Assembly: GCA_964441565.1 (NCBI GenBank)
Contig: CAYTWW010000002.1
Location: 88,032 to 152,031 of the forward strand
DNA: 64,000 nucleotides
Reading direction: 5' to 3'
From: an uncultured Methanosarcinales archaeon
GTDB lineage: Archaea > Nanobdellota > Nanobdellia > Woesearchaeales > GW2011-AR15
Within the stretch, counting starts at the first letter, position 1; every line of letters starts with the position of its first letter. The notes beneath the pieces were generated by a model. The model saw only the letters and a list, made by a program, of their open reading frames with translations, did no database searches and was not told the origin of the DNA. The position numbers and the translations under genes are program-made. Below, piece after piece: positions 14,883 through 64,000 of this stretch.

Positions 14883-15155
14883 GACCTATTGTTGAGGCAC
14901 ATGCGGCAGAAGACTTCAGCGCCGCGAACCTCTTTTCAGGTCAGCTAAACATAATCATATTATGTTTTTAGTGCGGTCTAGAAATTGCAGGTTCCTTATA
15001 AATCTTGCTAAGGCTTAGGTTATAATGAAATCCTTGGTATTTGAGATGAAGTTGATTAAAACAGTACACGATGCATAAAGCTGCGCATGTTTGGTACATG
15101 CACCAAGGGATTGATTGAATCACTGAGGTTAGGAGGCGTGCCTAAGGCCATGAAG

Positions 15156-15546
15156 AATCACCAAGGCACTTAGGACTTCGTCCTGGTGCCACTCGCGGTA
15201 CTCGTGGTGCTGAGGACTTGCGTCCTGGCATTACTCGATTTTCTCGTAACTTCCGATTTACCTGCTTTTACATACTCACGGAATCACCAAGGTACTAAGG
15301 ACTGCGTCCTCGTATCACTCGAAGTATCTCGTGATTCCGATATTCGGCGTGAGCAATCTCGCCGATCGGAATTATGGAACGTCAATATTTTTTCCAGGTC
15401 TCTTTTTGAGGCGTTTGACTCCATTCGGAGTAATTTCATACCTAGACATTTCAAACAAAGAGATTTTCAGAACGGAAAAAGGACGAAAAGACTATGCCTA
15501 ACTCTCCTCAGTGCACCAATCCCAATAAGGGAGCCTCTGGCACTTC
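15156..15546 (+). repeat. Copy 1 of a conserved multi-block intergenic repeat family (longest copy; contains three tandem hairpin units)
   Basis: The ordered blocks are: aatcaccaagg; hairpins ggcac-tt-aggacttcgtcct-g-gtgcc (about 15166-15190), aggacttgcgtcct (about 15213-15226) and aggactgcgtcct (about 15298-15310); the stem TTCCGAT..N22..ATCGGAA; ttttttccaggtctctttttg; agattttcag; and gggagcctctggcacttc (15529-15546). The same blocks recur in the same order near 21.0, 24.3 and 43.5 kb. Confidence 0.75.
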
Positions 15547-15601
15547 TCTTTCCATACTTGATCACCACAGGTTCTGAGGAAGGGTGATTCTGTTTCAGTT
15601 A

Positions 15602-21000: not shown

Positions 21001-21199
21001 AATCGCCAAGGTACTTAGGACTTGCATCCTTGTAGCACCAAGGTTCCGATTGCGCGTTGGAAGTAGTGATCGGAATAAAAGATAAGTTCCAGTTTTTCCA
21101 GGTCTCCTTTTTTGTAGCAAGATTTTCAGTCATTGAAGAATTACTTTATTTATCTCCCATCACTGCACAAACTGGTGATACGGGAGCCTCAGATGCTTC
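21001..21199 (+). repeat. Copy 2 of the multi-block intergenic repeat family
   Basis: Blocks: aatcgccaagg; degenerate hairpin tacttaggacttgcatcct; gttccgat..N..gtgatcggaata; agtttttccaggtctccttttttg; attttcag; tctcccatcactgcacaaac; gggagcctcagatgcttc. Orientation matches the other copies. Confidence 0.7.
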
Positions 21200-24287: not shown

Positions 24288-24480
24288 AATCGCCAAGGCT
24301 TCCGATCTTAGGCGTAAGCAATCTCGCCGATCGGAAGAAAAAAAGTTTCATTTTTCCAGGTCTCTTTTTTGGGAGCTTGGAACTTGTTTAAAAAAAGATT
24401 TTCAGTACGAAATAAGACTAAAAATTCTTTTTTTCTCCCATCATTGCACAAACAACTGATATGGGAGCCTCTGGCGCTTC
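24288..24480 (+). repeat. Copy 3 (most compact) of the multi-block intergenic repeat family
   Basis: Blocks: aatcgccaagg; cttccgat..N..cgccgatcggaag; agtttcatttttccaggtctcttttttg; aaagattttcag; ttctcccatcattgcacaaac; gggagcctctggcgcttc (24463-24480). It lies between topA and the next minus-strand gene. Confidence 0.75.
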
Positions 24481-28401: not shown

Positions 28402-30384
28402 CTAATACACTGCCACATACTTGACAATGCTGCACTCCCTGACATCCTTGACTGTGCAGAACCTCTGGATCTTCTCCTTGACAGAATCCAGGGACACTTT
28501 CGGCTCCATCTGTTCTGCAGGTGCCTCAGCGAATGATATCCTGTCATAGCATGCGACCTTCGAAAGATGGGAGAATATGTGTTTTTCAGACAGGCGCATG
28601 CCTGATCCATCTACATCTATAAGCCCTTGCGCCACCAGGCTTGCCACGACTTCCCCTATCCCGAGCCCAAGCTGCTTTGCCATGTCCTCTTCAGTGAATG
28701 TGCCAAGCTTGAAAGCCTGATGCAGCACTTTTATCTGGTCCTTCGATAGCCCTGCGAGCTCTGGCAGCCTTTTCGTCCGCATGGTCTCGATGTCTGTCAC
28801 GATCTCCCCGTTCTCCATCTCGCAGAGCAGGTTGAATTCCATGCCCTTCTCAGAGCATAGGAACATATAGGCAGGTATAAGCACTGTCTCCACCTTGGAC
28901 ACCTTCTTCTCGCTCATCAGCTCGATGTCCTTGGGTGACATCTTCGGTTTCACCAGAGGGATCATCTTCTTCTCCTCGAACTCTGTCAGTTTGTCGAAGA
29001 ACTTTCCTTCATTCTGCTCAAGCATCTCTACAGCATGTCCTCCATGCTGCGTCAGCCTTGGCCTGATGTTCACGAATAGCGGCATGTCTGCTATGCCTGT
29101 GATCAGAGCTGAACCGATAGGCAGGTTCTTAATCTCGCTCTCAGACTCGGCTGTGATACCCTCGACAGAGCTTGCGATCGCCTTCAGGTCACTGGGGTTC
29201 GTGACCTTCAGGATTATTTGTGTCGTGCACTGCGAGACGACAGACTTGTCTATCCTAGCAGGCCTCTGCGTTATCAGGCAAAGCCCGAGCCCGAACTTCC
29301 TCCCCTCTGATGCGACAGTACGCAGGATCTTCGAGCATCTCGCTTCTCCAAACGACCTCTCAGGGCAGAAGTTATGCGCTTCCTCGATCACACAGAAGAA
29401 CGGTGGCACCTTGTCTTTCTTCCTCAGCTCAAACAGGTCTTTCAGAAGCTTGTACAGGAGTATCTCAGTCACATCAGGATTCATGCCCTTGAGATTGATG
29501 ACAGTGCATTTCCCCGGCTGGACAAGCTCGTTGTAAGGAGAATAGCTATCTGTGAAGATATCAAGGTTCTTCAGGTACTCAAGGTTGTTGATGAGCGTCC
29601 ATTTGGCGGTATTCTCTTCCTTGTCGAGCGCGAACAGGACATTTGTGAAGTTGATCTTGTCAAGATGCTTGATCGCGCTGTATAGGATCCCCAGCTGCGT
29701 GTTGGACAGCTTTCCAGGTATGAGCTGGATTATCTCCGCAGGTGTCAGCTCGCTGTTGAGTTTTAGCGGACGAAGACTTGGATTCAGAGATGGATCTCCG
29801 AATTCCTGGACATTACTGAATGCCTTCGGCACAAGCCCGAACTTCGTCAGATTCTCCTTCTCCTCGGTGTTTGCATGCTTGAGCGAGGAGTACTCGCCAT
29901 GCGGATCGATTATCACGATAGGGACATTCTTCCCTATTATCTCCTCGACAAGGACCCCTGTCGTGTATGATTTGCCTGAACCTGATTTCGCCAGCACTAT
30001 CACATGCTTTGTCAGAAGCTTCGTGAGGTCCAGGTAGATGTCGATATCCTTTCCTTCGAGCTTTCCCACATATGCCCCCTTCTCAGTCTGCGGAAGGGCT
30101 ATGACTGACCTGACGAAATCATCCTCAGCACGAAGGACCTCAGAATTCTGGTCGAAAGGTATCCTTATGGACTTTATCCTGCCTTTGTCATCCTTATAAC
30201 CGATGACTGTGCATCTAGCGACATCCTTGTCAGTCCTCTCGATCTCCATTACCTGGCATAGCACCCAGTCATACACCTTGTGCATGACCTGGACGAACTC
30301 GAACTTCCTCGTCTCCTTCTCGACAATGAACTGGAAGTCGGTCGTGGTTATCTTGCCGAAGATATGTCCAAGGATCATCTGCAC
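28402..30384 (-). CDS. HerA/FtsK-superfamily (DUF87) P-loop ATPase with N-terminal HAS-barrel-like region
   Basis: 660 aa. Walker A is VLAKSGSGKSYTTGVLVEE and Walker B/DEAH-like is FFCVIEEAHNF. TQRP motif is LITQRPARIDKSV. The C-terminal region is helical and HTH-like. Confidence 0.8.
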   Translation of the reverse strand: MQMILGHIFGKITTTDFQFIVEKETRKFEFVQVMHKVYDWVLCQVMEIERTDKDVARCTVIGYKDDKGRIKSIRIPFDQNSEVLRAEDDFVRSVIALPQTEKGAYVGKLEGKDIDIYLDLTKLLTKHVIVLAKSGSGKSYTTGVLVEEIIGKNVPIVIIDPHGEYSSLKHANTEEKENLTKFGLVPKAFSNVQEFGDPSLNPSLRPLKLNSELTPAEIIQLIPGKLSNTQLGILYSAIKHLDKINFTNVLFALDKEENTAKWTLINNLEYLKNLDIFTDSYSPYNELVQPGKCTVINLKGMNPDVTEILLYKLLKDLFELRKKDKVPPFFCVIEEAHNFCPERSFGEARCSKILRTVASEGRKFGLGLCLITQRPARIDKSVVSQCTTQIILKVTNPSDLKAIASSVEGITAESESEIKNLPIGSALITGIADMPLFVNIRPRLTQHGGHAVEMLEQNEGKFFDKLTEFEEKKMIPLVKPKMSPKDIELMSEKKVSKVETVLIPAYMFLCSEKGMEFNLLCEMENGEIVTDIETMRTKRLPELAGLSKDQIKVLHQAFKLGTFTEEDMAKQLGLGIGEVVASLVAQGLIDVDGSGMRLSEKHIFSHLSKVACYDRISFAEAPAEQMEPKVSLDSVKEKIQRFCTVKDVRECSIVKYVAVY

Positions 30385-30411
30385 AGAAAAAAGCCCGGCG
30401 CTTTAAATTAT

Positions 30412-38176: not shown

Positions 38177-38217
38177 AAATCAAGGCGGACCAGGTAGCAA
38201 TATTTAAGGATTTTCAT

Positions 38218-38241
38218 GAAAAGAGTGAAGGGATAGGGATT
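38218..38241. repeat. Direct repeat: duplicate of the tRNA-Leu 3' end (gaaaagagtgaAgggatagggatt versus gaaaagagtgaGgggatagggatt at 38311-38334), att-site-like remnant
   Basis: 23 of 24 nt are identical to the 3' acceptor/T-arm end of the tRNA (minus strand) 93 bp away. A third partial T-arm-like fragment (gtgttcaaatcctgac) lies between them. Confidence 0.6.
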
Positions 38242-38318
38242 CCCAGGAACCGTAAGTTCATGGGCACACGAATGAAATGAGTGTGTGTTCAAATCCTGAC
38301 CCGAACGAATGAAAAGAG

Positions 38319-38458
38319 TGAGGGGATAGGGATTTGAACCCTAGTAGGCACTAAGCCAACAGATGACTTACATTGATCGTTCATCGCACTGCGATTTCGC
38401 AGCTCTCACCACTCAAATGCCTTGAGTCTGTCCCGTTTGGCCGCTCCGGCATCCCCTC
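38319..38458 (-). tRNA. tRNA-Leu (anticodon CAA) with a 56-nt intron at the canonical 37/38 position; CCA not encoded
   Basis: The minus-strand sequence has an acceptor stem GAGGGGA/TCCCCTC with discriminator A, then U8, a D-arm (CCGG..GG..), anticodon stem ACAGA/TCTGT and loop CUCAAG|A, a 15-nt variable arm (TGGCTTAGTGCCTAC), and a T-arm TAGGG-TTCAAAT-CCCTA. The intron, GCATTTGAGT..., pairs with the anticodon (ACTCAA/TTGAGT). The mature length is 84 nt. Confidence 0.7.
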
Positions 38459-38864: not shown

Positions 38865-39088
38865 AGTTTGGGTTCGAAGAGAGTCTGGTCGATGAAAGTC
38901 AGCTTCCTCTCGACATCCTCAAGTCCATTGCGCCACAGTTCAAGCTCAGAATCCTCCTGGTTCTTCAGATCATTGATCTTGCCCAGGATTGTCTTAGCTT
39001 CCTTGACCTTCTCCTGTATGAGCTCCATGATGTCGAGTATGTCCTTATACTCATCGATCTTGACGAATACGTTCATGCCTTGTTGCAT
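38861..39088 (-). CDS. Small helical protein, paralog of the C-terminal domain of the next gene
   Basis: 75 aa. It shares VFVKIDEYKDILD... and the C-terminal DVERKLTFIDQTLFE with 39093-39914 (LFVRTDLYRQALNNFIDIKDM ... EIQRKLIFIDKTLFEG). Confidence 0.45.
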   Translation of the reverse strand: MQQGMNVFVKIDEYKDILDIMELIQEKVKEAKTILGKINDLKNQEDSELELWRNGLEDVERKLTFIDQTLFEPKL

Positions 39089-39092
39089 ATGA

Positions 39093-39914
39093 TCACCCTT
39101 CGAATAGAGTCTTGTCTATGAAGATCAGCTTCCTCTGGATCTCCTCGATAGCTTTCTTGAACTCAGAGAATTCTACATCTGCGTTCTTCTTCAGGTTCTC
39201 GAGCCGGAATACTGTCTCTTCAGATTCTGTGAGCATGTCTTTTATGTCTATGAAGTTGTTGAGCGCCTGCCTGTAGAGGTCTGTCCTCACAAAGAGTGGC
39301 TTCTGGAGCTTCCTGTGCCTGTCATGCGAATACGGCTGCTCGATATCGCTGATCTTAGGGTGCCTGTAGAGATATTTCTCCTCAAGCTTCTCAAGCTCCA
39401 GCGGTGATATCTCGCTTCTCAGGTTTGGCGGAGGAGCAGGAACCTCGATCTCCGGTCTTGGCTGGCTCTTTGGTGTTCCCTGGACCCCCATCGTGAAAGC
39501 AGGCAGCTCATTCTTCTGCTCTGAGAAAGTTGGCAGCTGTTGCTTAGGAGGAGGTGTCAGAGGCTCCATAGTGAATCTTGGTTTAATATCGCTTTGGACA
39601 GGCCGCGCAGGAATTTCTGCTCCAGGAAGCTCAGGCCTTTGTGGAGGGGAAGGAGGGATCTTCGGGACGCTCATCGGTTGAGTCACTGCCTGCACTGGCT
39701 GCAAACCAGGTGTGGTCGGCACAGCCTGTTGCATAGGTGCCAAAGGCTGCATAGGCGGCATCGGTTGCATCGGCGGAACCGGAAGTGGCGGATCCATCGG
39801 CTTGAACTCAGGAAAATCTATAGGAGGGGGAGCTGGCAGACCTTCGGAAGGCTTAGGAGGTGAATCTGAGAAATCCAGAGTTTTTTTCTTTTGCTTGAAT
39901 TCAAACAGACCCAT
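39093..39914 (-). CDS. Proline-rich low-complexity protein with conserved C-terminal helical domain (paralog of 38861-39088)
   Basis: Start re-chosen at MGLFEFKQKKK. About 170 aa of P/Q/M-rich repeats (PMQPMPPMQPLAPMQ) precede a C-terminal domain shared with the upstream 75-aa protein. Confidence 0.5.
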   Translation of the reverse strand: MGLFEFKQKKKTLDFSDSPPKPSEGLPAPPPIDFPEFKPMDPPLPVPPMQPMPPMQPLAPMQQAVPTTPGLQPVQAVTQPMSVPKIPPSPPQRPELPGAEIPARPVQSDIKPRFTMEPLTPPPKQQLPTFSEQKNELPAFTMGVQGTPKSQPRPEIEVPAPPPNLRSEISPLELEKLEEKYLYRHPKISDIEQPYSHDRHRKLQKPLFVRTDLYRQALNNFIDIKDMLTESEETVFRLENLKKNADVEFSEFKKAIEEIQRKLIFIDKTLFEG

Positions 39915-43473: not shown

Positions 43474-43511
43474 GTTGTCAAAAAAGCACTCTGAATATCA
43501 GTCGACATTCT

Positions 43512-43880
43512 GGTCGCTTCCAATCACCAAGGCACTGAGGACTTCGTCCTGGTGCCGCTCGAATTCTCTCGTGGTGATCAGGACTAGCATCACTCGAGGT
43601 GTCTCGTGATTTCCGATATCACGCAATGGAAGCGGTGATCGGAATTAACAAACGTCTTTAGTTTTTCCAGGTCTCTTTTTTTGAGAACTTGTAGATGTTT
43701 CAAAAAAAAGAGATTTTCAGTTACGAAAAAACTTCAAAAATTCTTTTTACTCCCCTCACTGCACATGACCGTAGAAGGGAGCCTCTGGCGCTTCTGTTAT
43801 TGGCTCAATAGGATCACAAGGCACTTAGGACTTACGTCACTATAACCTCTGGTCCCAGGCAAGAGCCTCCGGCACTTCTC
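43512..43880 (+). repeat. Copy 4 of the multi-block intergenic repeat family (with an appended partial second unit)
   Basis: Blocks: aatcaccaagg; hairpin ggcactgaggacttcgtcctggtgcc; tttccgat..N..gtgatcggaatt; agtttttccaggtctctttttttg; aagagattttcag; ctcccctcactgcacatgacc; gggagcctctggcgcttc (43777-43794). A partial second unit follows: atcacaaggcacttaggacttacgtcac ... agagcctccggcacttctc (43862-43880). Confidence 0.75.
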
Positions 43881-54933: not shown

Positions 54934-55191
54934 ATGTCATCAGTCGGAGGCATGGCTAAGCCGAAAGTGATCATCCCTCCGCTCTCAGGAGGCTATATGG
55001 CGTCGACGATGCTCGGTTTCTTCATCTCTGTCATATATGTGTGGAAGATCAGCCCGCCATGGGGCCTTGCATTCTCGATAGCGTTCGCAGCGATGTTCAT
55101 CTCTGCTGTCAAGTCGATGACAATGGCAGAGCCAGACATGTTTGTCGAGACAGAGATGAGATCAAAGAAATCTAAGAAGAAGGGAATTTGA
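54934..55191 (+). CDS. Small membrane protein, hypothetical
   Basis: About 85 aa with two hydrophobic segments; start uncertain (alternative 54952). Confidence 0.3.
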   Translation: MSSVGGMAKPKVIIPPLSGGYMASTMLGFFISVIYVWKISPPWGLAFSIAFAAMFISAVKSMTMAEPDMFVETEMRSKKSKKKGI

Positions 55192-55477
55192 TATCGAATT
55201 TCTCCTTTGCCTTGTTCTCCTTGAAATAGACTGAATGCGACGCCCTCTTCTCGAATAGCGCGATTGCCACATTCATCATGTCGTTCTGGAACGGTTTTAG
55301 GTTCTTCTCCCGCATGATGGCCTTCGAGTCTTCGATGCATTGCTTGAGAACTTCGATATTCTCTCGTCTGGCTATCGCTTCCTGTTCTTTCTCTTCAGCA
55401 TCGTTCAGCGCGATCTCTTCCCACTTAGGATAGCCCCCTTTCGGGCTCTCTCTCGGAAATGATTTGTAGAACACCAT
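55172..55477 (-). CDS. Hypothetical small protein
   Basis: 101 aa, helical/charged; weak. Confidence 0.35.
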   Translation of the reverse strand: MVFYKSFPRESPKGGYPKWEEIALNDAEEKEQEAIARRENIEVLKQCIEDSKAIMREKNLKPFQNDMMNVAIALFEKRASHSVYFKENKAKEKFDIKFPSS

Positions 55478-55551: not shown

Positions 55552-58023
55552 GTGAGCCAGCTAAGTCACATCATGGTCTCTTCTCTCGAGAAGAACTCAA
55601 GGAAGAACCTCGTCTCCCTCAAAGGCGATTTTGTCTACAGGAGATATTCCTATGGCTCCATCCTGGAACTCTCAAAGAAGTTCTCGAAGTTCCTCGAACA
55701 GAATGGGATCAGGAAAGGGGACAGAATCTGCATATGTTCATACAACTGCCCGCAGTATTTCTTTGTGATGCTGGGTGCGATGTTCTCGGGTGTGATCATT
55801 GTGCCTGTCGATTTCGCTACATCTGACCAGTTGACCGGTACCTTCATGAAGCTCACTAGGTGCAGGATGCTGATCACAAGCATCAAGAAATCCATCAGCA
55901 CATCAGTGCCTACGTTCTATGTCGAGGAGCTTGAAGAGATGCTATCGCCTCTCACAAAGAAAGAGCCTGTCCATGTCGGAGATGACCACCTGGTAGAGAT
56001 CCTCTTCACATCAGGGACCACCGGAGATCCGAAAGGAGTGATGCTCACACATGATAACATCTGCTCGAACATGATGTCCGCGCTCTCTGTCTTCAAGGTA
56101 TATAGGACCGAGAAGCTGCTCTCCCTCATTCCGCTCTCCCATATGCTCGAACAATGCACAGGCTTCTTCGGCGTGATATTCGCCGGAGCTGAGACGACAC
56201 AACTGAGGTCGAGGAGGCCAAGCGAGATCCTCAAGGTCATACGCTATGAGAGGACCACGATGATAGTGGCTGTCCCGGCATTCTACAATCTCTTCAAGCG
56301 GAAGATCGAGGAGAAGGCAGAGAAATCAGGCAAACTGCAAGACCTGAGAACCCTTCTTACACTGGCTCAGAAGCTTCCAATGCCTGCCAGGAGGCTCCTA
56401 TTCAGGAAGCTGCACAGCACATTCGGAGGAAAGCTCAGGTGCGTAGTGAGCGGCGGAGCATCCCTCCCTCCTGAGACTGAGCTCTTCTGGGACAGGATAG
56501 GGATCCCAGTCATAAACGGCTACGGCTTGACCGAGACAAGCCCGATACTATCGATAAACACCCTTGGGCAGAGGAGATTCGGAAGCGTTGGCAAGCCTAT
56601 ACCAGGTGTACGTCTGCGCGTCTCTGAGGAAGGCGAGATCCTTGCCAGAGGACCAAACATCACGCAAGGCTATTACCTGAATCCAAAGGCGACCTCCTCG
56701 CTCCTGCAGAAAGGATGGCTGCACACAGGCGACTGCGGTGAGATAGACAAGCAAGGTTATGTCTACATCAAAGGGAGGATAAAGAACATGATCCTGAAGG
56801 CCAACGGGCTCAATGTCTACCCTGAGGATATAGAGTTGCTGCTCGACAGCCACCCCTTGGTGAAGGAATCATGCGTGCTGGGCATCGAGAAGGGGACAGA
56901 TGTGATCATAACAGCCATCTTGATCACAAGAGGTATGTCTTCGAACAGCGACCTGAAGGAGATGATAGACAGCATAAACAAGAAGCTTGAGCAGCATCAG
57001 CAGATACAGGATTTCTGCGTCTGGCCAAGACCTGATTTCCCAAAGACTCATACCATGAAGATAAAGAGGCTCCTTGTGGCATCCCAGCTGCAGAGATGCG
57101 AGGCTGGCATCGAAAGCTCTGATGAGCTGTCCTCGATCCTTTCAGAACTATCTCATAAGGATCATATCAAGGACGAGCACCTCCTTTATTCTGACCTGGG
57201 ATTCGACTCTCTGAAGACTATCGAGCTATCCACATTGATTGAGGAGAAGCTCGCTGTCGATATCGATGAGGCGATGATAGATGCAAAGACGACTGTGCGG
57301 TCGCTGAAGGAGATCATCAGCAGATCCGAGCCGAGTAGCGAGCTCCCTGTCTCACGTCTCATGTTCTCCCCGGTCTTCAAGCCATTCAAGCTGATACTGC
57401 CTGAGATAGCTTATCTTGTCACTTCACGGTTCTTCTCAAGCTTCAGGATTGAGGGCAGGGAGAATCTCTCAGATGTGAAAGGTCCTGTCATAATCATAAC
57501 CAACCATACAAGCCATCTTGATATCCCTACGATCACAAAGCACCTGCCGTTCCATCTCAGGACAAAGATGGCGACTGCTGCAGCAGCTGACTATTTCTTT
57601 GTCCAGGATGGAAAGCTTATATCAAGAGCTGTGGCCTTCATGTTCAACCATCTCCTCGGCGCCTTCCCTATGTCAAGGGACAAGAAAGCCCTGCGCCGGA
57701 CATCTCTGAGAAAAAGCCTGGAATTCATAGGCGAGATAGCTGACAAGGGATGGTCGCTTGCCATAGCTCCTGAAGGGACCAGGAGCAGGACAGGCAAGAT
57801 GGGGCACTTCAAGAACGGGATCGGGATCATCGTGAAAGAGACAGGCTATCCTGTCATCCCCGTGAAGGTCAAGGGCCTGTTTGACATCATGCCGCCAAAG
57901 ACCCATTTTCCGAGGAAAAGAGGCCCGGTCGAGATAGTCATAGGGAAACCTGTCAGGTTCTCAAGCACAGACAGTCCTGTGATGATAACAAGAGAACTCG
58001 AAAGCATAGTGAGGAAGCTATGA
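55552..58023 (+). CDS. Tri-domain fusion: fatty-acyl-AMP/CoA ligase (AMP-binding) - acyl carrier protein - 1-acyl-sn-glycerol-3-phosphate acyltransferase (PlsC/LPLAT)
   Basis: 823 aa. AMP-binding core FTSGTTGDPKGVMLTH, then GYGLTETS. The ACP-like segment LLYSDLGFDSLKTIELSTLIEEKL carries the DSL phosphopantetheine site. The C-terminal acyltransferase has NHTSHLDIP (HxxxxD) and APEGTRS. Confidence 0.85.
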   Translation: MSQLSHIMVSSLEKNSRKNLVSLKGDFVYRRYSYGSILELSKKFSKFLEQNGIRKGDRICICSYNCPQYFFVMLGAMFSGVIIVPVDFATSDQLTGTFMKLTRCRMLITSIKKSISTSVPTFYVEELEEMLSPLTKKEPVHVGDDHLVEILFTSGTTGDPKGVMLTHDNICSNMMSALSVFKVYRTEKLLSLIPLSHMLEQCTGFFGVIFAGAETTQLRSRRPSEILKVIRYERTTMIVAVPAFYNLFKRKIEEKAEKSGKLQDLRTLLTLAQKLPMPARRLLFRKLHSTFGGKLRCVVSGGASLPPETELFWDRIGIPVINGYGLTETSPILSINTLGQRRFGSVGKPIPGVRLRVSEEGEILARGPNITQGYYLNPKATSSLLQKGWLHTGDCGEIDKQGYVYIKGRIKNMILKANGLNVYPEDIELLLDSHPLVKESCVLGIEKGTDVIITAILITRGMSSNSDLKEMIDSINKKLEQHQQIQDFCVWPRPDFPKTHTMKIKRLLVASQLQRCEAGIESSDELSSILSELSHKDHIKDEHLLYSDLGFDSLKTIELSTLIEEKLAVDIDEAMIDAKTTVRSLKEIISRSEPSSELPVSRLMFSPVFKPFKLILPEIAYLVTSRFFSSFRIEGRENLSDVKGPVIIITNHTSHLDIPTITKHLPFHLRTKMATAAAADYFFVQDGKLISRAVAFMFNHLLGAFPMSRDKKALRRTSLRKSLEFIGEIADKGWSLAIAPEGTRSRTGKMGHFKNGIGIIVKETGYPVIPVKVKGLFDIMPPKTHFPRKRGPVEIVIGKPVRFSSTDSPVMITRELESIVRKL

Positions 58024-58331
58024 GGGCCGGTATCGACATAGTCCACATCCCAAGGATCAAGGCAATGCTTGATGATCCAGAGCTTCTCGGGAGGACATTC
58101 ACGCATTCTGAGCTCAGGGACAAGCGGCCTGAGCATCTTGCTGGCATCTTCGCAGCCAAGGAAGCCTTTCTCAAGGCTTCTCAGGTCAAGGTATCCAGAT
58201 GGGATGAGATCGAGATAGGATCAAAAGGCAAGCCAAGGATCATCCATAGCTTCGCAGATAGATGCAAAAGTATCGACCTCAGCATATCCCATGACGGAGA
58301 CTATGCTGTGGCTATAGTCATCATTCCTTAG
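58020..58331 (+). CDS. acpS: Holo-[acyl-carrier-protein] synthase (AcpS-type 4'-phosphopantetheinyl transferase)
   Basis: 103 aa. MRAGIDIVHIPRI ... FAAKEAFLKA ... ISHDGDYAVAIVI is typical of AcpS. ATGA overlap with the upstream ACP-containing fusion. Confidence 0.8.
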   Translation: MRAGIDIVHIPRIKAMLDDPELLGRTFTHSELRDKRPEHLAGIFAAKEAFLKASQVKVSRWDEIEIGSKGKPRIIHSFADRCKSIDLSISHDGDYAVAIVIIP

Positions 58332-58339
58332 CCAAAGTG

Positions 58340-59017
58340 TCAGAATAATCCCTTTATCCCCCATAGCAACCAGTTCCTCCAGAAGTAGAAGAAAGACAGG
58401 GGACTGCCCTCGATCCTTGCCACCACATACTGCGCATACAATCGGGGGCTGATCATGTGCTTCTCATTCGATGGGATCTTGTAGTTCTTATGGAAATCCG
58501 TCATCAGCCTGTACGGATGGAAGATGATGACTCTCCCCTCGACCTCTTTCATTATGCTCTTGAGATAGCCCTCGACCGCATGTTTGGATGCGCAGTAGAG
58601 TGAGTAATGCTTGGCAGGGAAGAGTCCTGCCATCGAGCTTATGACTGCAAGAGTTGCATGTGGATTGTTCTTGTAGAGTTCCTTAGAGGTCAGGAATACA
58701 GATCTGGTATTGATATCAAAGATCCTGTCCCATTCTTCTGCAGAATATTCAAGGAAAGGTTTCCTGTCATTGTATCCAGCGCTGTGCAGCAGCAGGTCGA
58801 TTGTGCCAAGTTCCCTCCGTGATTCCCTGAGCAGCGCCTTCACCTGCTTCTCATCAGTGATATCTGCAGAAAAGGATTTTGACCCCAGTTCCTTCCCAAG
58901 CATTGCGAGGGCTGGCTTGTCCCTCCCCGAGAGAAATATCTTGTGCCCTTTTCGCTTCAGCAGCCTCGCGACCTCTGCTCCCAGTCCACCTGTCGCTCCG
59001 ATTATAAGCGCATTCAT
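58340..59017 (-). CDS. Short-chain dehydrogenase/reductase (SDR; FabG-like ketoreductase)
   Basis: Start re-chosen at MNALIIGATGGLGAEVARLL (TGxxxGxG Rossmann motif). Catalytic YxxxK region (YCASKHAV) and the NNAG-equivalent region (HSAG) are present. Confidence 0.8.
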   Translation of the reverse strand: MNALIIGATGGLGAEVARLLKRKGHKIFLSGRDKPALAMLGKELGSKSFSADITDEKQVKALLRESRRELGTIDLLLHSAGYNDRKPFLEYSAEEWDRIFDINTRSVFLTSKELYKNNPHATLAVISSMAGLFPAKHYSLYCASKHAVEGYLKSIMKEVEGRVIIFHPYRLMTDFHKNYKIPSNEKHMISPRLYAQYVVARIEGSPLSFFYFWRNWLLWGIKGLF

Positions 59018-59018
59018 C

Positions 59019-59057
59019 TCACATATCCAGGGGCATTCGGGCTCCCGCCGCCATGCC
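59019..59057. repeat. 38/39-bp direct repeat, copy A (tcacatatccaggggcattcgggctcccgccgccatgcc), left border of the AT-rich insertion
   Basis: Matches 59679-59716 with 3 mismatches and 1 indel. Copy A sits 1 nt upstream of the SDR ATG. Copy B encodes the last 12 codons plus stop of the DUF87 ATPase. Confidence 0.7.
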
Positions 59058-59678
59058 CACAAACTCCCGATCAATTTAGTAGGATTATCCTTCGGAACTT
59101 TCCTTGGGAACAACTTTTAAGCACCTTGTATCACCAGTATTTACTATTTCATTATGCTTGACATACATGTTTCTGTGAAATTGTCTTTCTCGATAATGTC
59201 TTTTTCAGGAGAAAAACAGTAGTAGTTGTGCTTAAAAAATCCATTATCAAGGTTAAATTCAATTTTATCCTGGTCAACAGTGTTACAAAAATCCAGATTA
59301 TTTGTTTCTTTTGCCTGCAGAAATTGTCTGTTAAAGACACCCCCGCAGCTGTCATAGACAAACGGATTGTCAAAGATAAAACTAAACAGGACCAAAATAT
59401 CAATTAATATGGTGATAGCGAACAACGCATCTAAAATATAAAGACTCATATTTCTTCTTTTCCTAGCCTGATAATAAAAGAAAGAAAGCAGACATGTGCA
59501 TAATAGCCAGATAATGGATAGCGATGCAAAATAGAGGATTTGGTTTTCGGTAATAATTTTGTAGATTAGATCGATAAATAATCTAGTGGGAACATAACTT
59601 ATCGGAATAAAAAATACAAAAAGCATGAATTTTTTTACAAAAACATGATTCTCCATGGTTTTTTCTCGCACAGGCATA
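59058..59678. mobile_element. About 0.62-kb AT-rich insertion (roughly 32% GC versus about 49% for the surroundings) bounded by the 38-bp direct repeats; carries one membrane-protein gene
   Basis: There is a sharp compositional drop between the repeats. Removing the segment and one repeat copy would place the ATPase stop 1-2 nt from the SDR start, the tight packing seen elsewhere in this window. Confidence 0.5.
59144..59677 (-). CDS. Membrane protein encoded within the AT-rich insertion, hypothetical
   Basis: 177 aa, three predicted TM helices, then an Asn/Asp/Phe-rich soluble domain. Its AT-rich codon usage is atypical for this window. Confidence 0.5.
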   Translation of the reverse strand: MPVREKTMENHVFVKKFMLFVFFIPISYVPTRLFIDLIYKIITENQILYFASLSIIWLLCTCLLSFFYYQARKRRNMSLYILDALFAITILIDILVLFSFIFDNPFVYDSCGGVFNRQFLQAKETNNLDFCNTVDQDKIEFNLDNGFFKHNYYCFSPEKDIIEKDNFTETCMSSIMK

Positions 59679-59716
59679 TCACATATTCAGGGCATTGGGG
59701 CTCCCGCCACCATGCC
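59679..59716. repeat. 38-bp direct repeat, copy B (tcacatattcagggcattggggctcccgccaccatgcc), right border of the AT-rich insertion
   Basis: See copy A; overlaps the ATPase 3' end (…WHGGGSPNALNM-stop). Confidence 0.7.
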
Positions 59717-61016
59717 AGCTGACCCTTGGCCTAATCCTTATCTCGTGGATCGATTCGTTCATATCATCAAAGACAATCGCTGTGCCTTTCAGCCTTGGAA
59801 GGTCTTCCATCGCTTCCATGATACCGTCCCTGTTGTAGCTCTGCGCAAGCAGCATCAGCGCCTGCACATCGATATCCGCGGTGACCCTGTGGGAAAGAAC
59901 AGTATCTGACTGTGTCATCACATCTGTATGTATCTTGCCTGGCTGCTGGGTCGCGAGTATAAGCGATATGCCTGGCTGCCTTCCCTCTCTCATTATGATC
60001 TTGAGCGGCTCAGTGGCCGCATTCTTGTCCTTCTCGTCCCTCGGAAGGAACTCATGCGCCTCGTCGATTATCAACCACACAAGAGGCATCTTCTTTGCCT
60101 TCTCAGGATTCTTGATAGCATGGTTATCGCCGCTCATCCATCCCTTCTCTTTGTTGATGTGCTGGAATTCCTCATCCTTTCTGGAGAGCATCCTTGATAT
60201 GAATAGATGCTTGGCCACAAGCCCAAGCACCATCGCTTTCACATCCCATCCTGAAGGAAGCGTAGCATAGCAGCTGACATCGAGTATCGAGATCTGTCCA
60301 GGAGCAGCGAGGAAATCTAGCTCGGTAGTCTCCTCTGAGAAGACACCCCAGCTGTCTGCGAGCCTGAACATGGCGACTGCTTCCATCCTCTCTTCCAAGG
60401 GGAACTCATCATTCTTCTTCAGAGCCTCCTCGATATCCTTGATGTCATAGTCTTTCTTCGTGTCCTTCAGCATCTGGATAGTGTCGTTTATCATGACACC
60501 TATTCCTGAGAACTTCTTCTGCTTGAATGCCTCAAGCCAGTCATCTGCATCAAGGTCTGATGGCTTGATCGAGAACGGAAAGTCAGTGGGGATGCCTTTC
60601 TTCTTGTATTCCTCATAGAACTTGCATGGCGTGAATATCCTTACATTCACCCCTTGCGGCTTGAGCCCAAGCTCTGCCAAGCCTTTCTCCTCGTCGACAT
60701 TAGGCATCTTCATTGTCCAGTAGACACCCATCGTGTCGATCAGGATTATCGAAACATTTTCCTTGATCTCATCCTTCATCAGCGAGAACCCTTCTGCCAC
60801 GACACCCATCGTATATGATTTTCCGCTTCCCCGCTTGCCGAATATAGAAAGGACGTGGCTTCCTGAGACATCCAGGTAGACAGGATTGCAGAGCTTTGTT
60901 GAGTATGCATCCACCTCCTGGTATTTGTTCCCTACATAGATGCATCCGAGAGTCCCGTACCTCTTCGCATCTCCGGCGCTCCTCCCGATTATCAGGGGAG
61001 TCTCTGTGTCTATCAT
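59679..61016 (-). CDS. HerA/DUF87-family P-loop ATPase (second copy in window, 445 aa)
   Basis: Walker A IFGKRGSGKSYTMGVVAEG. Walker B/DEAH-like LVWLIIDEAHEFLP. ATQQPGKI corresponds to the TQRP-type motif. Confidence 0.75.
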   Translation of the reverse strand: MIDTETPLIIGRSAGDAKRYGTLGCIYVGNKYQEVDAYSTKLCNPVYLDVSGSHVLSIFGKRGSGKSYTMGVVAEGFSLMKDEIKENVSIILIDTMGVYWTMKMPNVDEEKGLAELGLKPQGVNVRIFTPCKFYEEYKKKGIPTDFPFSIKPSDLDADDWLEAFKQKKFSGIGVMINDTIQMLKDTKKDYDIKDIEEALKKNDEFPLEERMEAVAMFRLADSWGVFSEETTELDFLAAPGQISILDVSCYATLPSGWDVKAMVLGLVAKHLFISRMLSRKDEEFQHINKEKGWMSGDNHAIKNPEKAKKMPLVWLIIDEAHEFLPRDEKDKNAATEPLKIIMREGRQPGISLILATQQPGKIHTDVMTQSDTVLSHRVTADIDVQALMLLAQSYNRDGIMEAMEDLPRLKGTAIVFDDMNESIHEIRIRPRVSWHGGGSPNALNM

Positions 61017-61097
61017 GCTGAGAAATGTTAAAAATCCTGAGTTAATAAAGGTTTTCAGAAGATAAGTTTATCATATACATTTTTTTTACCTTCGTCC

Positions 61098-61523
61098 ATG
61101 CGAATCATAAAAGCAGATCACGACATCAGCGCATTTGAGAAGAGGCTGTGGAAGGAGTTCTGGGAGGAAAACAAGAGGACCCAGGACTACAGGAAGATGA
61201 AGTTCCTCATAAAAGAAGAAGATGCAGACATCGGCTACATCCACTTGATCATATCCGGAGGGACGATGAAGGTGGAAGATATAATCGTCGATAAGAAGTC
61301 CAGAGGGAACAAGATAGGCCACAGGATAATGGAGTTCATCTATGATCTGGCGAAGGCTCAGATGTGTCATAAGATACGGCTTGAGACTTCAAAGGAATTC
61401 ATGCCTGTCGCATTCGAGTTATACAGGAAGCATGGCTTCATGATCGAAGGCAACCTCAAGGATGACATGCATGGAAAGGATTGGGTTGTGATGAGCAGAC
61501 AGTTGGTAAGAAAGATAGAATAA
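61098..61523 (+). CDS. GNAT-family N-acetyltransferase
   Basis: 141 aa. Acetyl-CoA-binding motif region VDKKSRGNKIGHRIMEFI (Q/RxxGxG/A-like) and C-terminal YRKHGF. Confidence 0.75.
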   Translation: MRIIKADHDISAFEKRLWKEFWEENKRTQDYRKMKFLIKEEDADIGYIHLIISGGTMKVEDIIVDKKSRGNKIGHRIMEFIYDLAKAQMCHKIRLETSKEFMPVAFELYRKHGFMIEGNLKDDMHGKDWVVMSRQLVRKIE

Positions 61524-61541
61524 AGGAAAAAACTAGAAGGG

Positions 61542-64000
61542 CTAATCTTTTCTCCTACGTCTTCTGTAGAACAGGAAGATCAGGCCACCCAATACCAGGA
61601 TCGCTACGATTGCCATCCAGACATTGCTGTTCTCATCCTGCGCTTCAGTCTCGATCTGATCCTCAGGCTGCAGTGCAGCATTGCCTGTGACTGCCTCGGA
61701 TATCTCAGCCTGGCATGGCTGCTCCTGATTTGGCCTTGACGATGTGGTGCCGCATGCGTTGGAATCAGTGCAATCCCTTGTCTGCATCCCATCTGAGCAT
61801 CCAGACCATTGGCCGCAGTTCCATTCCTCGACACAGGAGCAGTTCTGGATCTCAGCAGGTCTTCCATATGTACTTCCGCAGTTCACATCAGTGCAGCTCC
61901 TGGTCTGTGACCCGCCTACGCAGCTGCTCCACTCAGTGCACGTCCAGTTCGAATAGCAGTTGTCTCTTCTCAGATCCCAGCTTCTGCCAGAAGAAGAACT
62001 GATAGTCTCAGGAATAGTCCCTCTTACTGCAGAATGTGTCAGGTTCTCTATCCTTATCGTTGCTCCCTCATCTACGCAGACAATCCCGTTGCTTGTCAGG
62101 CTGCCTCCAAGACATGATGTCATATCAGTCTCGCTTGCTCCATCGCAACCATCGCTCATCTGGTTTATAGATGCAATTTCGCTGTCCTTGACACATAGTC
62201 CGATGAAACCATTGTCAGATATATAGATCGTCTTCTTCTTGCCTGCCTGCAACTGGCCAGAGAGATTGACTATCATGGAATTCTCACCTTTGATTACCTT
62301 GATCCTGCTGAGATCAAGCACATCATCTGTGAAATCATGCGAGAAGTTCAACATGAGATCCGACGAATCATAGAGCCTGATCTCGTATTCTCCAGAATAG
62401 TAGATTCCTGATGCATTCCCTTCTCCCACCCCGATAGCCAGATCGCTGACACCTGGAGCAGGAACATCATCCTCGTCAAACCACAGCCTGTCTGTATTGT
62501 CAGGCAAGACGTCATTATCGCTGTCAGCCATTATCTCGAAGAATTTGCTGCTGCTCTGCTTGGTCTCATTCGACACATTATCATAGCATTCGACAGACCA
62601 CTCATAGCTTCCGCTTGACAGTGTCTGTTCAAATGAAAGTACAATACCCTCCTCAGGTGAATCTACGGTCTGGTTGAGCACTGAGTCTATGTAAAGCGAG
62701 CAGTTCGGGGCAGTCCCATTATAGTAGATGTATGTGAAGTTGATATCTGTGCTGAATGTCTGGTTGCTGTTCTCTGGACTATATAGCTTGATCGTGAATT
62801 CAGGCCTGTCACCGTACACCTCGAAATCATCTACATCAGTCTCATTCACATTTCCTGCATCATCGAACAGGTAGAACCTGTATGACCAGTTGCCTGTCAC
62901 TCCATTCTTTGCCACTATTATCGGCTCAGTGATGTCAGTGATGACTTGCCTGGTATCATTCACCCAGCTGCCGCTCATGTTAGTCGAAAAGATATAGCTC
63001 TCTGTGAAGTTGTAGGATGCAAGATTATCAGAGACCTTGATCCTGAAGTATATCTCCTCTTCGCTGTAGACAGGACCATAGTGCTGCTGCTCAGAGTAGC
63101 CAGGCGCATCATTGTCGACAATGATATAGAGCCTGTCTGAATCCCTGGTGTTGTTGCTTGGTGTTGCACGATCTGTGATGTACACCGGAAGCTGGTAGTT
63201 GCCTGTCTCACTCTGCGTGACTGTGATATTGGTGCTCCAGGAACCCCACTGGCCTGAGGCGTTGCTTCCTGATACATGCTCCATCGTAGCATTCGTTTCG
63301 CTGCCTGCATATGTGGTATCCACCATCACAATGCCTATCCCTGCATCCTCGTCAAGTGCAGCTATCGAAGCTGTGACAACCTGTCCACTCCGTACTGAGG
63401 ACTGTCCAGAAGGGTATGCTAGGATCAGGTCTTTTGATGAAGGTATGTTCCTGTCGATCATCAGGTGCACTGCTACAGACGCCTGGTTGTTCTTGGTGTC
63501 TTTAGCTGTCACATTGATAACATATCCATCAGAGTCGTCATACTCGGCTGTATCCCATAGGCACGCATACGGAGCAGTCGTATCCACACATAGTGTAGAG
63601 TAGGATTCTGTTGAATTCTTGATCCTGAAAGTGACACTTGATATCCCGCTCAGGTCAGAGGCAGACACAGATATCGTCGCATTCCCATTGGAATATGTGT
63701 TGTTGCCCGGGCTTGCTATCAGGACATTTGGTGGTGTAATATCGATATTGGTCGTCCTTGAGATATCGCTCGCATTGAATTGATGCAGCTTGTTGGAGAT
63801 GCCGACATATGCATAGCCGTTCGCCACAGCAGGCGAGTTCTGGAGCATTATATTGGACCTGTACATCGCGATCAATTGAGATATGTCAGAGGCATCAAGC
63901 TGATAGAATCTCCAATCATGGCTTGTGACATACACGAATCCGTCTGCTACAGCAGGTGAAGATGTTATGCCGCTGCCTGTCCGATATTCAGCGATCTTCT
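61542..64000 (-). CDS. Large N-glycosylation-sequon-rich surface protein with beta-propeller-like (PQQ/BamB-like) repeats, Cys-rich W-x-C-x-EWS-x-C repeats and a C-terminal TM anchor; N-terminus lies beyond window end
   Basis: The reading frame stays open upstream of the ORF-track Met to position 64000 (…ADGFVYVTSHDWRFY…). There are many N-x-S/T sequons. Repeats NWTCTEWSSC, EWNCGQWSGC and TRSCTD/TRDCTD are present. C-terminal VWMAIVAILVLGGLIFLFY is followed by RRRRRKD. Confidence 0.7.
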   Translation of the reverse strand, partial: KIAEYRTGSGITSSPAVADGFVYVTSHDWRFYQLDASDISQLIAMYRSNIMLQNSPAVANGYAYVGISNKLHQFNASDISRTTNIDITPPNVLIASPGNNTYSNGNATISVSASDLSGISSVTFRIKNSTESYSTLCVDTTAPYACLWDTAEYDDSDGYVINVTAKDTKNNQASVAVHLMIDRNIPSSKDLILAYPSGQSSVRSGQVVTASIAALDEDAGIGIVMVDTTYAGSETNATMEHVSGSNASGQWGSWSTNITVTQSETGNYQLPVYITDRATPSNNTRDSDRLYIIVDNDAPGYSEQQHYGPVYSEEEIYFRIKVSDNLASYNFTESYIFSTNMSGSWVNDTRQVITDITEPIIVAKNGVTGNWSYRFYLFDDAGNVNETDVDDFEVYGDRPEFTIKLYSPENSNQTFSTDINFTYIYYNGTAPNCSLYIDSVLNQTVDSPEEGIVLSFEQTLSSGSYEWSVECYDNVSNETKQSSSKFFEIMADSDNDVLPDNTDRLWFDEDDVPAPGVSDLAIGVGEGNASGIYYSGEYEIRLYDSSDLMLNFSHDFTDDVLDLSRIKVIKGENSMIVNLSGQLQAGKKKTIYISDNGFIGLCVKDSEIASINQMSDGCDGASETDMTSCLGGSLTSNGIVCVDEGATIRIENLTHSAVRGTIPETISSSSGRSWDLRRDNCYSNWTCTEWSSCVGGSQTRSCTDVNCGSTYGRPAEIQNCSCVEEWNCGQWSGCSDGMQTRDCTDSNACGTTSSRPNQEQPCQAEISEAVTGNAALQPEDQIETEAQDENSNVWMAIVAILVLGGLIFLFYRRRRRKD

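Follow-up and report, generated by a model that had tools for sequence, protein, structure and literature searches.

We analyzed a stretch of 64,000 nucleotides from a DPANN archaeon (the window; contig CAYTWW010000002.1 of assembly GCA_964441565.1) and found that the junction between two of its genes, encoding a DUF87-type ATPase and a short-chain dehydrogenase/reductase (SDR), is present twice, with 617 nt of low-GC DNA between the copies. This insert contains a single open reading frame (ORF) of 177 codons, here called the cargo, and the ORF listing shows the 445-aa ATPase, the cargo and the SDR in the same orientation on the minus strand. We propose that a foreign fragment was captured once at the ATPase-SDR junction, through illegitimate or short-homology recombination, and that the target was duplicated in the event. 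We would give this explanation roughly half of the total probability.

A repeat search combined with gapped pairwise alignment placed copy A of the junction at 59015-59057 (43 nt) and copy B at 59675-59716 (42 nt), with four substitutions and one indel, an additional C in copy A, between them. The repeat search alone reports two abutting pieces (27 nt at 93% identity and 25 nt at 80%), which the gapped alignment joins into one unit. In gene orientation (minus strand), copy B reads GGCATGGTGGCGGGAGCCCCAATGCCC-TGAATATGTGAtATG (59716->59675) and copy A reads GGCATGGCGGCGGGAGCCCGAATGCCCCTGGATATGTGAgATG (59057->59015). The longest exact run common to the two is 11 nt (GGCGGGAGCCC). An initial annotation of this DNA had described two near-identical 38-nt copies with three mismatches and one indel, and our alignment agrees; the repeat also extends 4 nt past that unit, across a 1-nt spacer (t/g) and an ATG. 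Beyond the ATG, four of seven nucleotides are still identical, which is not significant. With up to three mismatches allowed, the 27-nt core occurs exactly twice in the window and never in 100 dinucleotide-preserving shuffles, and the repeat is therefore neither a chance match nor a generic gene-end motif. A generic terminator was ruled out as well, there being only those two occurrences in 64 kb.

Copy B is the working 3' end of the ATPase gene. As initially annotated, it supplies the last 12 codons (WHGGGSPNALNM), which encode the C-terminus ...SWHGGGSPNALNM*, and the TGA stop; the 1-nt spacer and the ATG that opens the cargo ORF follow. Copy A, read in the ATPase frame, gives GHGGGSPNA and then, minus the one extra C, LDM*, i.e. 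HGGGSPNA(+1 nt)LDM*. Its relic stop lies 1 nt before the SDR start codon (59017..59015), the spacing that the initial annotation had noted. We compared copy A with six orthologous loci (L006, L007, L008, L095, L097 and L098), which have ATPases 64-78% identical to that of the window and a GC content of 29-44%. These ATPases end in ...SWHGGGSPNALNM (L007), ...SPSALDM (L006) and ...ESPNVLTM* (L008), with similar ends in the other three, and the shared pattern ...WHGGGSPNAL[N/D/T]M* agrees with the translation of copy A. Because copy A matches these C-termini, we read it as a genuine ATPase 3' end that is now pseudogenised and no longer codes for the ATPase. Both copies span the stop, the spacer and the ATG, so the duplicated unit is the whole ATPase-SDR junction, and the alignment indicates that the new ORF has taken over the SDR start context. 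Removal of the insert would re-create a tight junction, with the stop-1nt-ATG arrangement restored, as had been suggested; the hypothetical empty site reconstructed in this way reads ...AGCTGGCATGGYGGCGGGAGCCCSAATGCCCTGRATATGTGAKATGAATGCGCTTATAATCGG...

The DNA between the copies (59058-59674) has a GC content of ~33% and differs sharply from its surroundings. At 32.9%, the interval 59058-59678 lies ~6 standard deviations below the window mean of 49.0% (sd 2.8%, 621-nt windows). It is the lowest-GC stretch of the window, the next-lowest 621-nt window elsewhere being at 40.4%. GC content at third codon positions (GC3) is 0.365 in the 177-aa ORF versus 0.55-0.65 in eight neighboring genes. These values confirm the earlier description of a ~32% GC segment in a ~49% GC context that holds one membrane-protein gene with atypical codon usage. 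The insert is clearly foreign by composition and was clearly acquired horizontally. The rest of the fragment, 86 nt from the cargo stop to copy A (59058-59143, minus strand), is non-coding and has 38% GC.

The cargo ORF (59144-59677, minus strand) was characterized from the ORF listing, phmmer searches, alignment, a sequence profile and a structural model, and encodes three transmembrane (TM) helices followed by a predicted Cys-rich ectodomain. The protein has no match in Pfam or NCBIfam. A word-indexed search of 5.8 billion proteins returned only the cargo itself, and an exact-product search found its 170-aa product from this locus alone. The initial annotation had called for searches with hidden Markov models, and these uncovered an unnamed family: phmmer against 1.8 billion representatives gave nine weak relatives (E 5e-8 to 1e-3), and a profile search added two. 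We define the family as P0122, P0123 and P0125-P0132, leaving out the repetitive protein P0124. Its alignment shows three shared N-terminal TM helices and ten invariant residues in the motif SCG-x-FN ... FC ... YC-x-P-x-x-D ... C, which correspond to C111, G112, F115, N116, F130, C131, C154, P157, D160 and C171 of the cargo. A profile made without the window protein scores the cargo at 86 bits over positions 10-171 of 261. Because the match stops at position 171, the cargo gene is truncated at its 3' end. The protein is without the family's C-terminal Cys-rich part (~90 residues), and full-length members (205-348 aa) carry additional Cys-rich repeats in this region. The 86 nt after the cargo stop contain no significant remnant of the C-terminal part. 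Continuation past the stop in another frame was considered and discarded, the match ('RCLKVVPKES' against 'qCikiiawrs') reaching only 1 bit and losing significance after multiple testing.

The other end of the ORF is also informative. Other family members start at the residue that aligns with Met8 of the cargo (59656). The likeliest source of the first ATG of the ORF is therefore the SDR start codon, duplicated and joined in frame to 18 nt of foreign leader. A genomic context is available for two family members. One adjoins dnaX and the other lies between dnaG-rpoD and comEC, on contigs of 34-36% GC, which points to a bacterial chromosomal setting with the composition of the insert itself.

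An AlphaFold model built from an 11-sequence alignment (pLDDT 86, pTM 0.70) has three long helices and then a small alpha/beta domain, with no structural neighbor in the PDB or BFVD. Taken with the model, the basic loop ARKRRN between TM2 and TM3 suggests that the Cys-rich domain faces outward. Where the initial annotation had offered a surface, immunity or exclusion protein, it is the surface part that these predictions make plausible. In L006, the closest relative, a 395-aa ORF between two ATPase paralogues (L006:1515-2702) combines a lipobox-like N-terminus (LLISCG) with Cys-rich repeats; its match to the C-terminal half of the cargo-family profile is weak, at 21 bits and with high compositional bias.

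Since the source data are metagenome assemblies, an insert of deviant composition could in principle be an artefact, unrelated low-GC reads having been joined chimerically into the contig. The window DNA is contained in a 186-kb JGI contig (Ga0255811_10893858), and the identical ATPase and insert are also found on contigs from four other JGI metagenomes (L002-L005). All four carry the left junction and L002 carries the right one, so that five assemblies from as many samples have an identical left junction, and two an identical right junction. Support for the right junction thus comes from one further assembly, which possibly shares reads with the source assembly. Several contigs end near the insert: L004 and L005, from different samples, both stop at window position 59048, within copy A, and L003 stops after 84 nt of the insert, where its eight mismatches are all transversions and resemble an error-laden tip. 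L002 and L005 share a start at 61549. Between L002 and the window, only three of 6495 positions differ, all within 58985-59055 (copy A and the SDR start). The contig ends and single-nucleotide polymorphisms (SNPs) at copy A could reflect either a technical effect, such as a drop in coverage or a systematic sequencing problem at the GGCGGCGGGAGCCC hairpin beside AT-rich DNA, or strain heterogeneity with a breakpoint at that position. A repeat-induced join is excluded because exact matches between copies A and B do not exceed 11 nt, so that no assembly-size k-mer links them. Nor would a chimera yield a relic ATPase end that is frameshifted and carries allele-like substitutions. We therefore give an artefact hardly any credence.

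The initial annotation had favored an integrated mini-element with att-like ends or a recombination-mediated cassette. Under this model, a non-autonomous element would have entered by site-specific recombination at a ~40-nt att site in the ATPase 3' end, the repeats would be attL and attR, and a recombinase encoded elsewhere (an integrase or XerA-type enzyme) would have acted in trans. The geometry is indeed the classical one, with direct repeats of 42/43 nt flanking the insert, the 3' end of a gene as target and its reading frame restored by copy B. Moreover, both copies can be parsed in the manner of the 28-nt sites that flank modules exploiting Xer/dif recombination (IMEX, pdif-type), which have inverted arms of roughly 11 nt on either side of a 6-nt spacer and depend on a Xer recombinase in the genome; in this dif-like 11-6-11 reading, arm complementarity is 8/11. 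The two copies differ outside the identical 11-nt core, as if attP and attB differed in their arms, and what follows the ATPase varies among relatives. Cassette systems, integrons among them, are also known from metagenome-assembled genomes (MAGs) of the Nanoarchaeota group (PMC9668308). If the insert could excise, its hypothetical circle junction would run ...GAGTTTGT then GGCATGG..., which can also be written as ...GATCGGGAGTTTGT joined to GGCATGGYGG...

The searches for the rest of such a system were negative, however. ORF listing and domain searches show that the one ORF in the insert has no similarity to recombinases, and phmmer with an Xer-type integrase matched none of the window ORFs of at least 80 aa. 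No inverted repeat joins the ends of the insert, and the interval 58900-59850 contains no attC core pair (RYYYAAC...GTTRRRY) on either strand. The repeats and the 3' region fold no better than shuffled controls (z -1.5 to -1.8; 3' region z -1.46). We likewise rejected the repeat as a structured RNA or DNA element, its hairpin not being significant and the window having no Rfam hit. The dif-like parse is dictated largely by the WHGGGSPNA codons, and the orthologous sequence is less palindromic (5/11 in L007); we keep it as a lead. The initial annotation had proposed looking for further copies of the 38-mer, and neither the window nor IMG/VR has one. None of the six orthologous loci repeats the ATPase 3' end, including those where other genes occupy this spot. 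Neither the cargo nor its family, chromosomal in bacteria, is present in IMG/VR or in phage and plasmid collections.

The insert has arbitrary ends, the cargo gene being cut. A truncated gene is what would be expected of a random fragment rather than a tailored cassette, and the insert combines such ends with deviant GC and GC3 and no element machinery, a combination that marks foreign DNA captured by illegitimate or homology-facilitated recombination. The initial annotation had also named a result that would speak against it, namely the same insert at the same flanks in all relatives together with a repeat common at gene ends. The six orthologous loci do not repeat the ATPase 3' end, and the repeat is not common at gene ends; all near-identical contigs are filled. 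The repeat geometry of the initial annotation stands, and its mobile or att-like interpretation is not supported. The positive evidence for a site-specific cassette is limited to that geometry, and we consider such an origin improbable; nothing shows the insert to be a mobile mini-element or to belong to a recurrent system.

We next consider an exchange with a related strain through homology-facilitated illegitimate recombination, in which one ATPase 3' end would have been imported together with its downstream gene and the other orphaned. Homology in a conserved flank, either the ATPase or the side of the 101-aa gene and RluA-type pseudouridine synthase that follow it in relatives, would have served as the anchor, and the other end would have been joined illegitimately. 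The coding part of the copies differs at three sites, in the manner of two functional alleles: in the ATPase frame, GGT/GGC and CCC/CCG are synonymous changes, and AAT/GAT exchanges N for D, both of which occur in orthologues. Three substitutions in 38 nt separate the copies, fewer than separate either of them from any sampled relative (at least five in 38). At the DNA level, conservation of the ATPase 3' end is somewhat above the average for the gene (75% versus ~68%), and the contig breaks and the SNP cluster are located at copy A. The mechanism and the orphaned 3' regions that it leaves are documented in bacteria (PMC5361080; PMC3240628).

These observations are offset by others. The ATPase 3' end ranks only 254th of 1295 windows, which rules it out as an exceptionally conserved patch of DNA, and a pattern of three substituted sites has no statistical weight. 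Exchange would require two unrelated genes that each start 1 nt after the ATPase stop, whereas the distance from this stop to the next start is 6 to 188 nt in relatives. It would also leave the foreign composition of the cargo unexplained, merely shifting the acquisition to another strain. Further, the first ATG of the cargo lies upstream of the native start of its family and is most readily taken as duplicated host sequence, which favors duplication of the host junction over import of a donor ATPase-cargo junction. We therefore judge an exchange between strains unlikely, and place it second, behind duplication of the junction and ahead of the site-specific cassette.

In the sequence of events that we favor, a ~0.62-kb fragment from a low-GC donor would have been captured a single time at the ATPase/SDR junction of this 49%-GC archaeon, and ~42 nt of host sequence spanning the junction (the last 12 ATPase codons, stop, 1-nt spacer and ATG) would have been duplicated. 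The upstream copy would have preserved the ATPase, leaving the downstream copy as a dead relic that gives the SDR its original start context. The fragment would have brought in the gene of a Cys-rich surface protein with three TM helices, cut down to its 5' two-thirds and oriented like the ATPase. Because the duplicated ATG is 1 nt from the ATPase stop and in frame with Met8, the cargo probably shares a transcript with the ATPase and relies on termination-reinitiation for its translation. The insert brings no machinery of its own and presumably is not itself mobile. The arrangement could have arisen through a staggered break that was filled in, through template switching, or through Campbell-type entry of a circularised fragment that already carried host-like sequence. 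Junction duplication explains, without further assumptions, why the cargo ORF opens upstream of its native start, with exactly 1 nt between the ATPase stop and its ATG.

Several points weigh against this reading. A target duplication of 42 nt is long for any simple break-repair event, and we know of no documented archaeal mechanism that yields one. The copies differ at five of 43 positions, and if they were identical at insertion, then either considerable age or error-prone fill-in must be invoked. The two synonymous and one N/D substitutions, with both states found in relatives, would also be compatible with two ATPase alleles and hence an exchange between strains. Contigs from two samples end in copy A and the only three SNPs of one strain cluster there, which could indicate recombination activity. 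Finally, this is a single instance with no empty site recovered, which leaves the polarity and the mechanism of the event as proposals.

We compared the locus with known systems that place new DNA behind conserved genes. Illegitimate recombination facilitated by homology has been proposed for displacement arrays of type VI secretion systems, Rhs loci and contact-dependent growth inhibition (CDI) systems (PMC5361080; PMC3240628), which include orphan immunity genes after type VI effectors and orphan Rhs/CDI 3' modules. As in these arrays, new DNA immediately follows a conserved gene, the former downstream gene is displaced and preceded by an orphaned 3' piece of the conserved gene, and the element encodes no recombinase. 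The arrays, however, are bacterial and recurrent at the same loci and swap linked toxin/immunity modules, whereas here a single archaeal event involves functionally unrelated genes. Duplication of the whole junction, including the ATG of the next gene, also sets this locus apart and points to target duplication rather than allele import. In addition, this type of recombination combines one homologous anchor with one microhomology joint, and its typical reported outcome is deletion of recipient DNA; here the right joint shows a microhomology of at most 2-3 nt (TGG/GG), and the outcome is a duplication.

Elements that integrases insert at gene 3' ends share with this locus the direct repeats of tens of nucleotides, the deviant foreign DNA and the intact target gene. 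The insert differs from them in its size of 0.6 kb, its one truncated gene, the lack of an integrase within it or, by the Xer-type search, in the window, and an att-like sequence that has no further copy in the window or in IMG/VR, with no reuse seen in related genomes. Integron cassettes, which also occur in archaeal MAGs (PMC9668308), resemble the insert in that a promoterless ORF is co-oriented with the upstream gene at a defined insertion point and in that cross-domain cargo is plausible. Integron cassettes are recognized by attC sites (R''/R' cores and a folded bottom strand), accompanied by IntI or by at least two attCs within 4 kb (PMC9668308). Our locus has no attC, significant fold, IntI or array, and its flanks are a duplicated host gene end, which is not a product of integron recombination. 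Insertion sequences and miniature inverted-repeat transposable elements (MITEs) are likewise bordered by direct target duplications, but the insert has no terminal inverted repeats, encodes no transposase and is present in a single copy. To our knowledge, 42 nt is several times the length of the target-site duplications of prokaryotic transposable elements.

The ATPase itself (59679-61016, minus strand), a HerA-FtsK-type P-loop protein by domain and homologue searches, is a conserved core gene of DPANN archaea of the Woesearchaeota/Nanoarchaeota type, with thousands of homologues labeled Woesearchaeota, Nanoarchaeota or Nanobdellota. Among 5.8 billion proteins, the nearest non-identical homologue is 76% identical, with none between 76% and 100%, and the relatives recovered by a scan of GTDB genomes were all 73-78% identical. 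Every contig that has the identical ATPase or cargo is filled, and the searched collections contain nothing closer than 76% otherwise. Relatives have the ancestral order of a paralogous ATPase, the ATPase, a 101-aa gene, an RluA-type pseudouridine synthase and DUF7544. The 101-aa gene is also present in the window (55172-55477, minus strand), and locus comparison identifies it as the conserved downstream neighbor of the ATPase (directly in L007 and L097, and after one extra gene in L006). The ATPase-SDR adjacency, which the initial annotation had treated as the original state, therefore does not hold in relatives and itself appears to be derived and particular to this lineage. Directly after the ATPase, L007 and L097 have nothing extra, whereas L006 has a 560-aa protein of no assigned function, L008 a nitroreductase and L095 a cytidylate-kinase-like gene. 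Because the loci differ at this point, the spot tolerates insertions in general, and the comparison points to a permissive junction rather than a specific att site. A functional partnership between ATPase and cargo was rejected for now, since relatives have unrelated enzymes or unknowns after the ATPase.

This variability could also be read in a bolder way. The last ~40 nt of the DPANN HerA/VirB4-type ATPase gene, conserved and partly palindromic, might be a recurrent att- or dif-like site for promoterless foreign genes, including bacterial ones, which would be expressed through coupling to the ATPase; the genes found in relatives would then be older cassettes with decayed repeats. We regard this as very improbable.

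The SDR gene (58340-59017, minus strand) encodes 225 aa from the ATG at 59017, as judged from the ORF listing and the start of the Rossmann motif. Gene callers predict a 257-aa version that begins at a TTG (59113) inside the insert and reads through copy A. An exact-product search found no record of either version. A metagenome scan with the SDR gave nothing above 34% identity and also missed the contig carrying the window itself; the best metagenomic relatives are only ~32-34% identical. Domain searches, locus comparison and composition identify a fusion of acyl-AMP ligase, acyl carrier protein and acyltransferase (823 aa) and a 4'-phosphopantetheinyl transferase on the opposite strand (55552-58331, plus strand). 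This block and the SDR gene stand between the ATPase and its ancestral neighbor gene. The interval 55552-59017 forms a bacterial-style acyl/lipid cluster, has host-like GC and is absent from all six orthologous loci; it is probably an older acquisition at the same variable spot.

The other side of the ATPase has changed as well. Five relatives (L006, L007, L096, L097 and L098) carry a tandem paralogous DUF87 ATPase immediately upstream of the orthologue (49-54% identical in L006 and L007). The window instead has, at 61017-64000, a divergent GNAT acetyltransferase and the end of a 1649-aa surface protein with Laminin_G_3, beta-propeller and Big_7 domains. Since other genes occupy the position of the paralogue, rearrangement has affected both flanks of the ATPase. 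Another ORF for a DUF87-type ATPase, only distantly related, is found at 28405-30402 (phmmer E 6e-23 to the junction ATPase).

The window also contains repeats that are distinct from the duplicated junction. A dispersed intergenic family has four copies (15140-15570, 21040-21130, 24300-24480 and 43500-43820), built from the blocks TTTTTCCAGGTCTCTTTTT, AGATTTTCAG, GGGAGCCTCTGGCGCTTC and the inverted repeat TTCCGAT...GATCGGAA; searches of the window gave neither a tRNA nor an Rfam hit. This family may represent a small RNA gene, a promoter module or an element resembling a MITE. Local direct repeats at 38216-38334 (26 nt, 96% identity, 93 nt apart) and 38873-39146 (48 nt, 83%, 226 nt apart) may reflect internal protein repeats.

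Together, these results describe at base resolution how a genome-reduced DPANN archaeon would have gained a gene fragment with relatives in low-GC bacteria. The interrupted gene and the displaced gene would both have been kept functional because the junction was duplicated. It is this 42-nt duplication of a complete gene junction, with all three genes left translatable, that makes the case unusual. As a single event without demonstrated mobility, it establishes no new mechanism. For the unnamed family of membrane-anchored, Cys-rich proteins, predicted to act at the cell surface, the analysis provides a first genomic context and a confident structural model.

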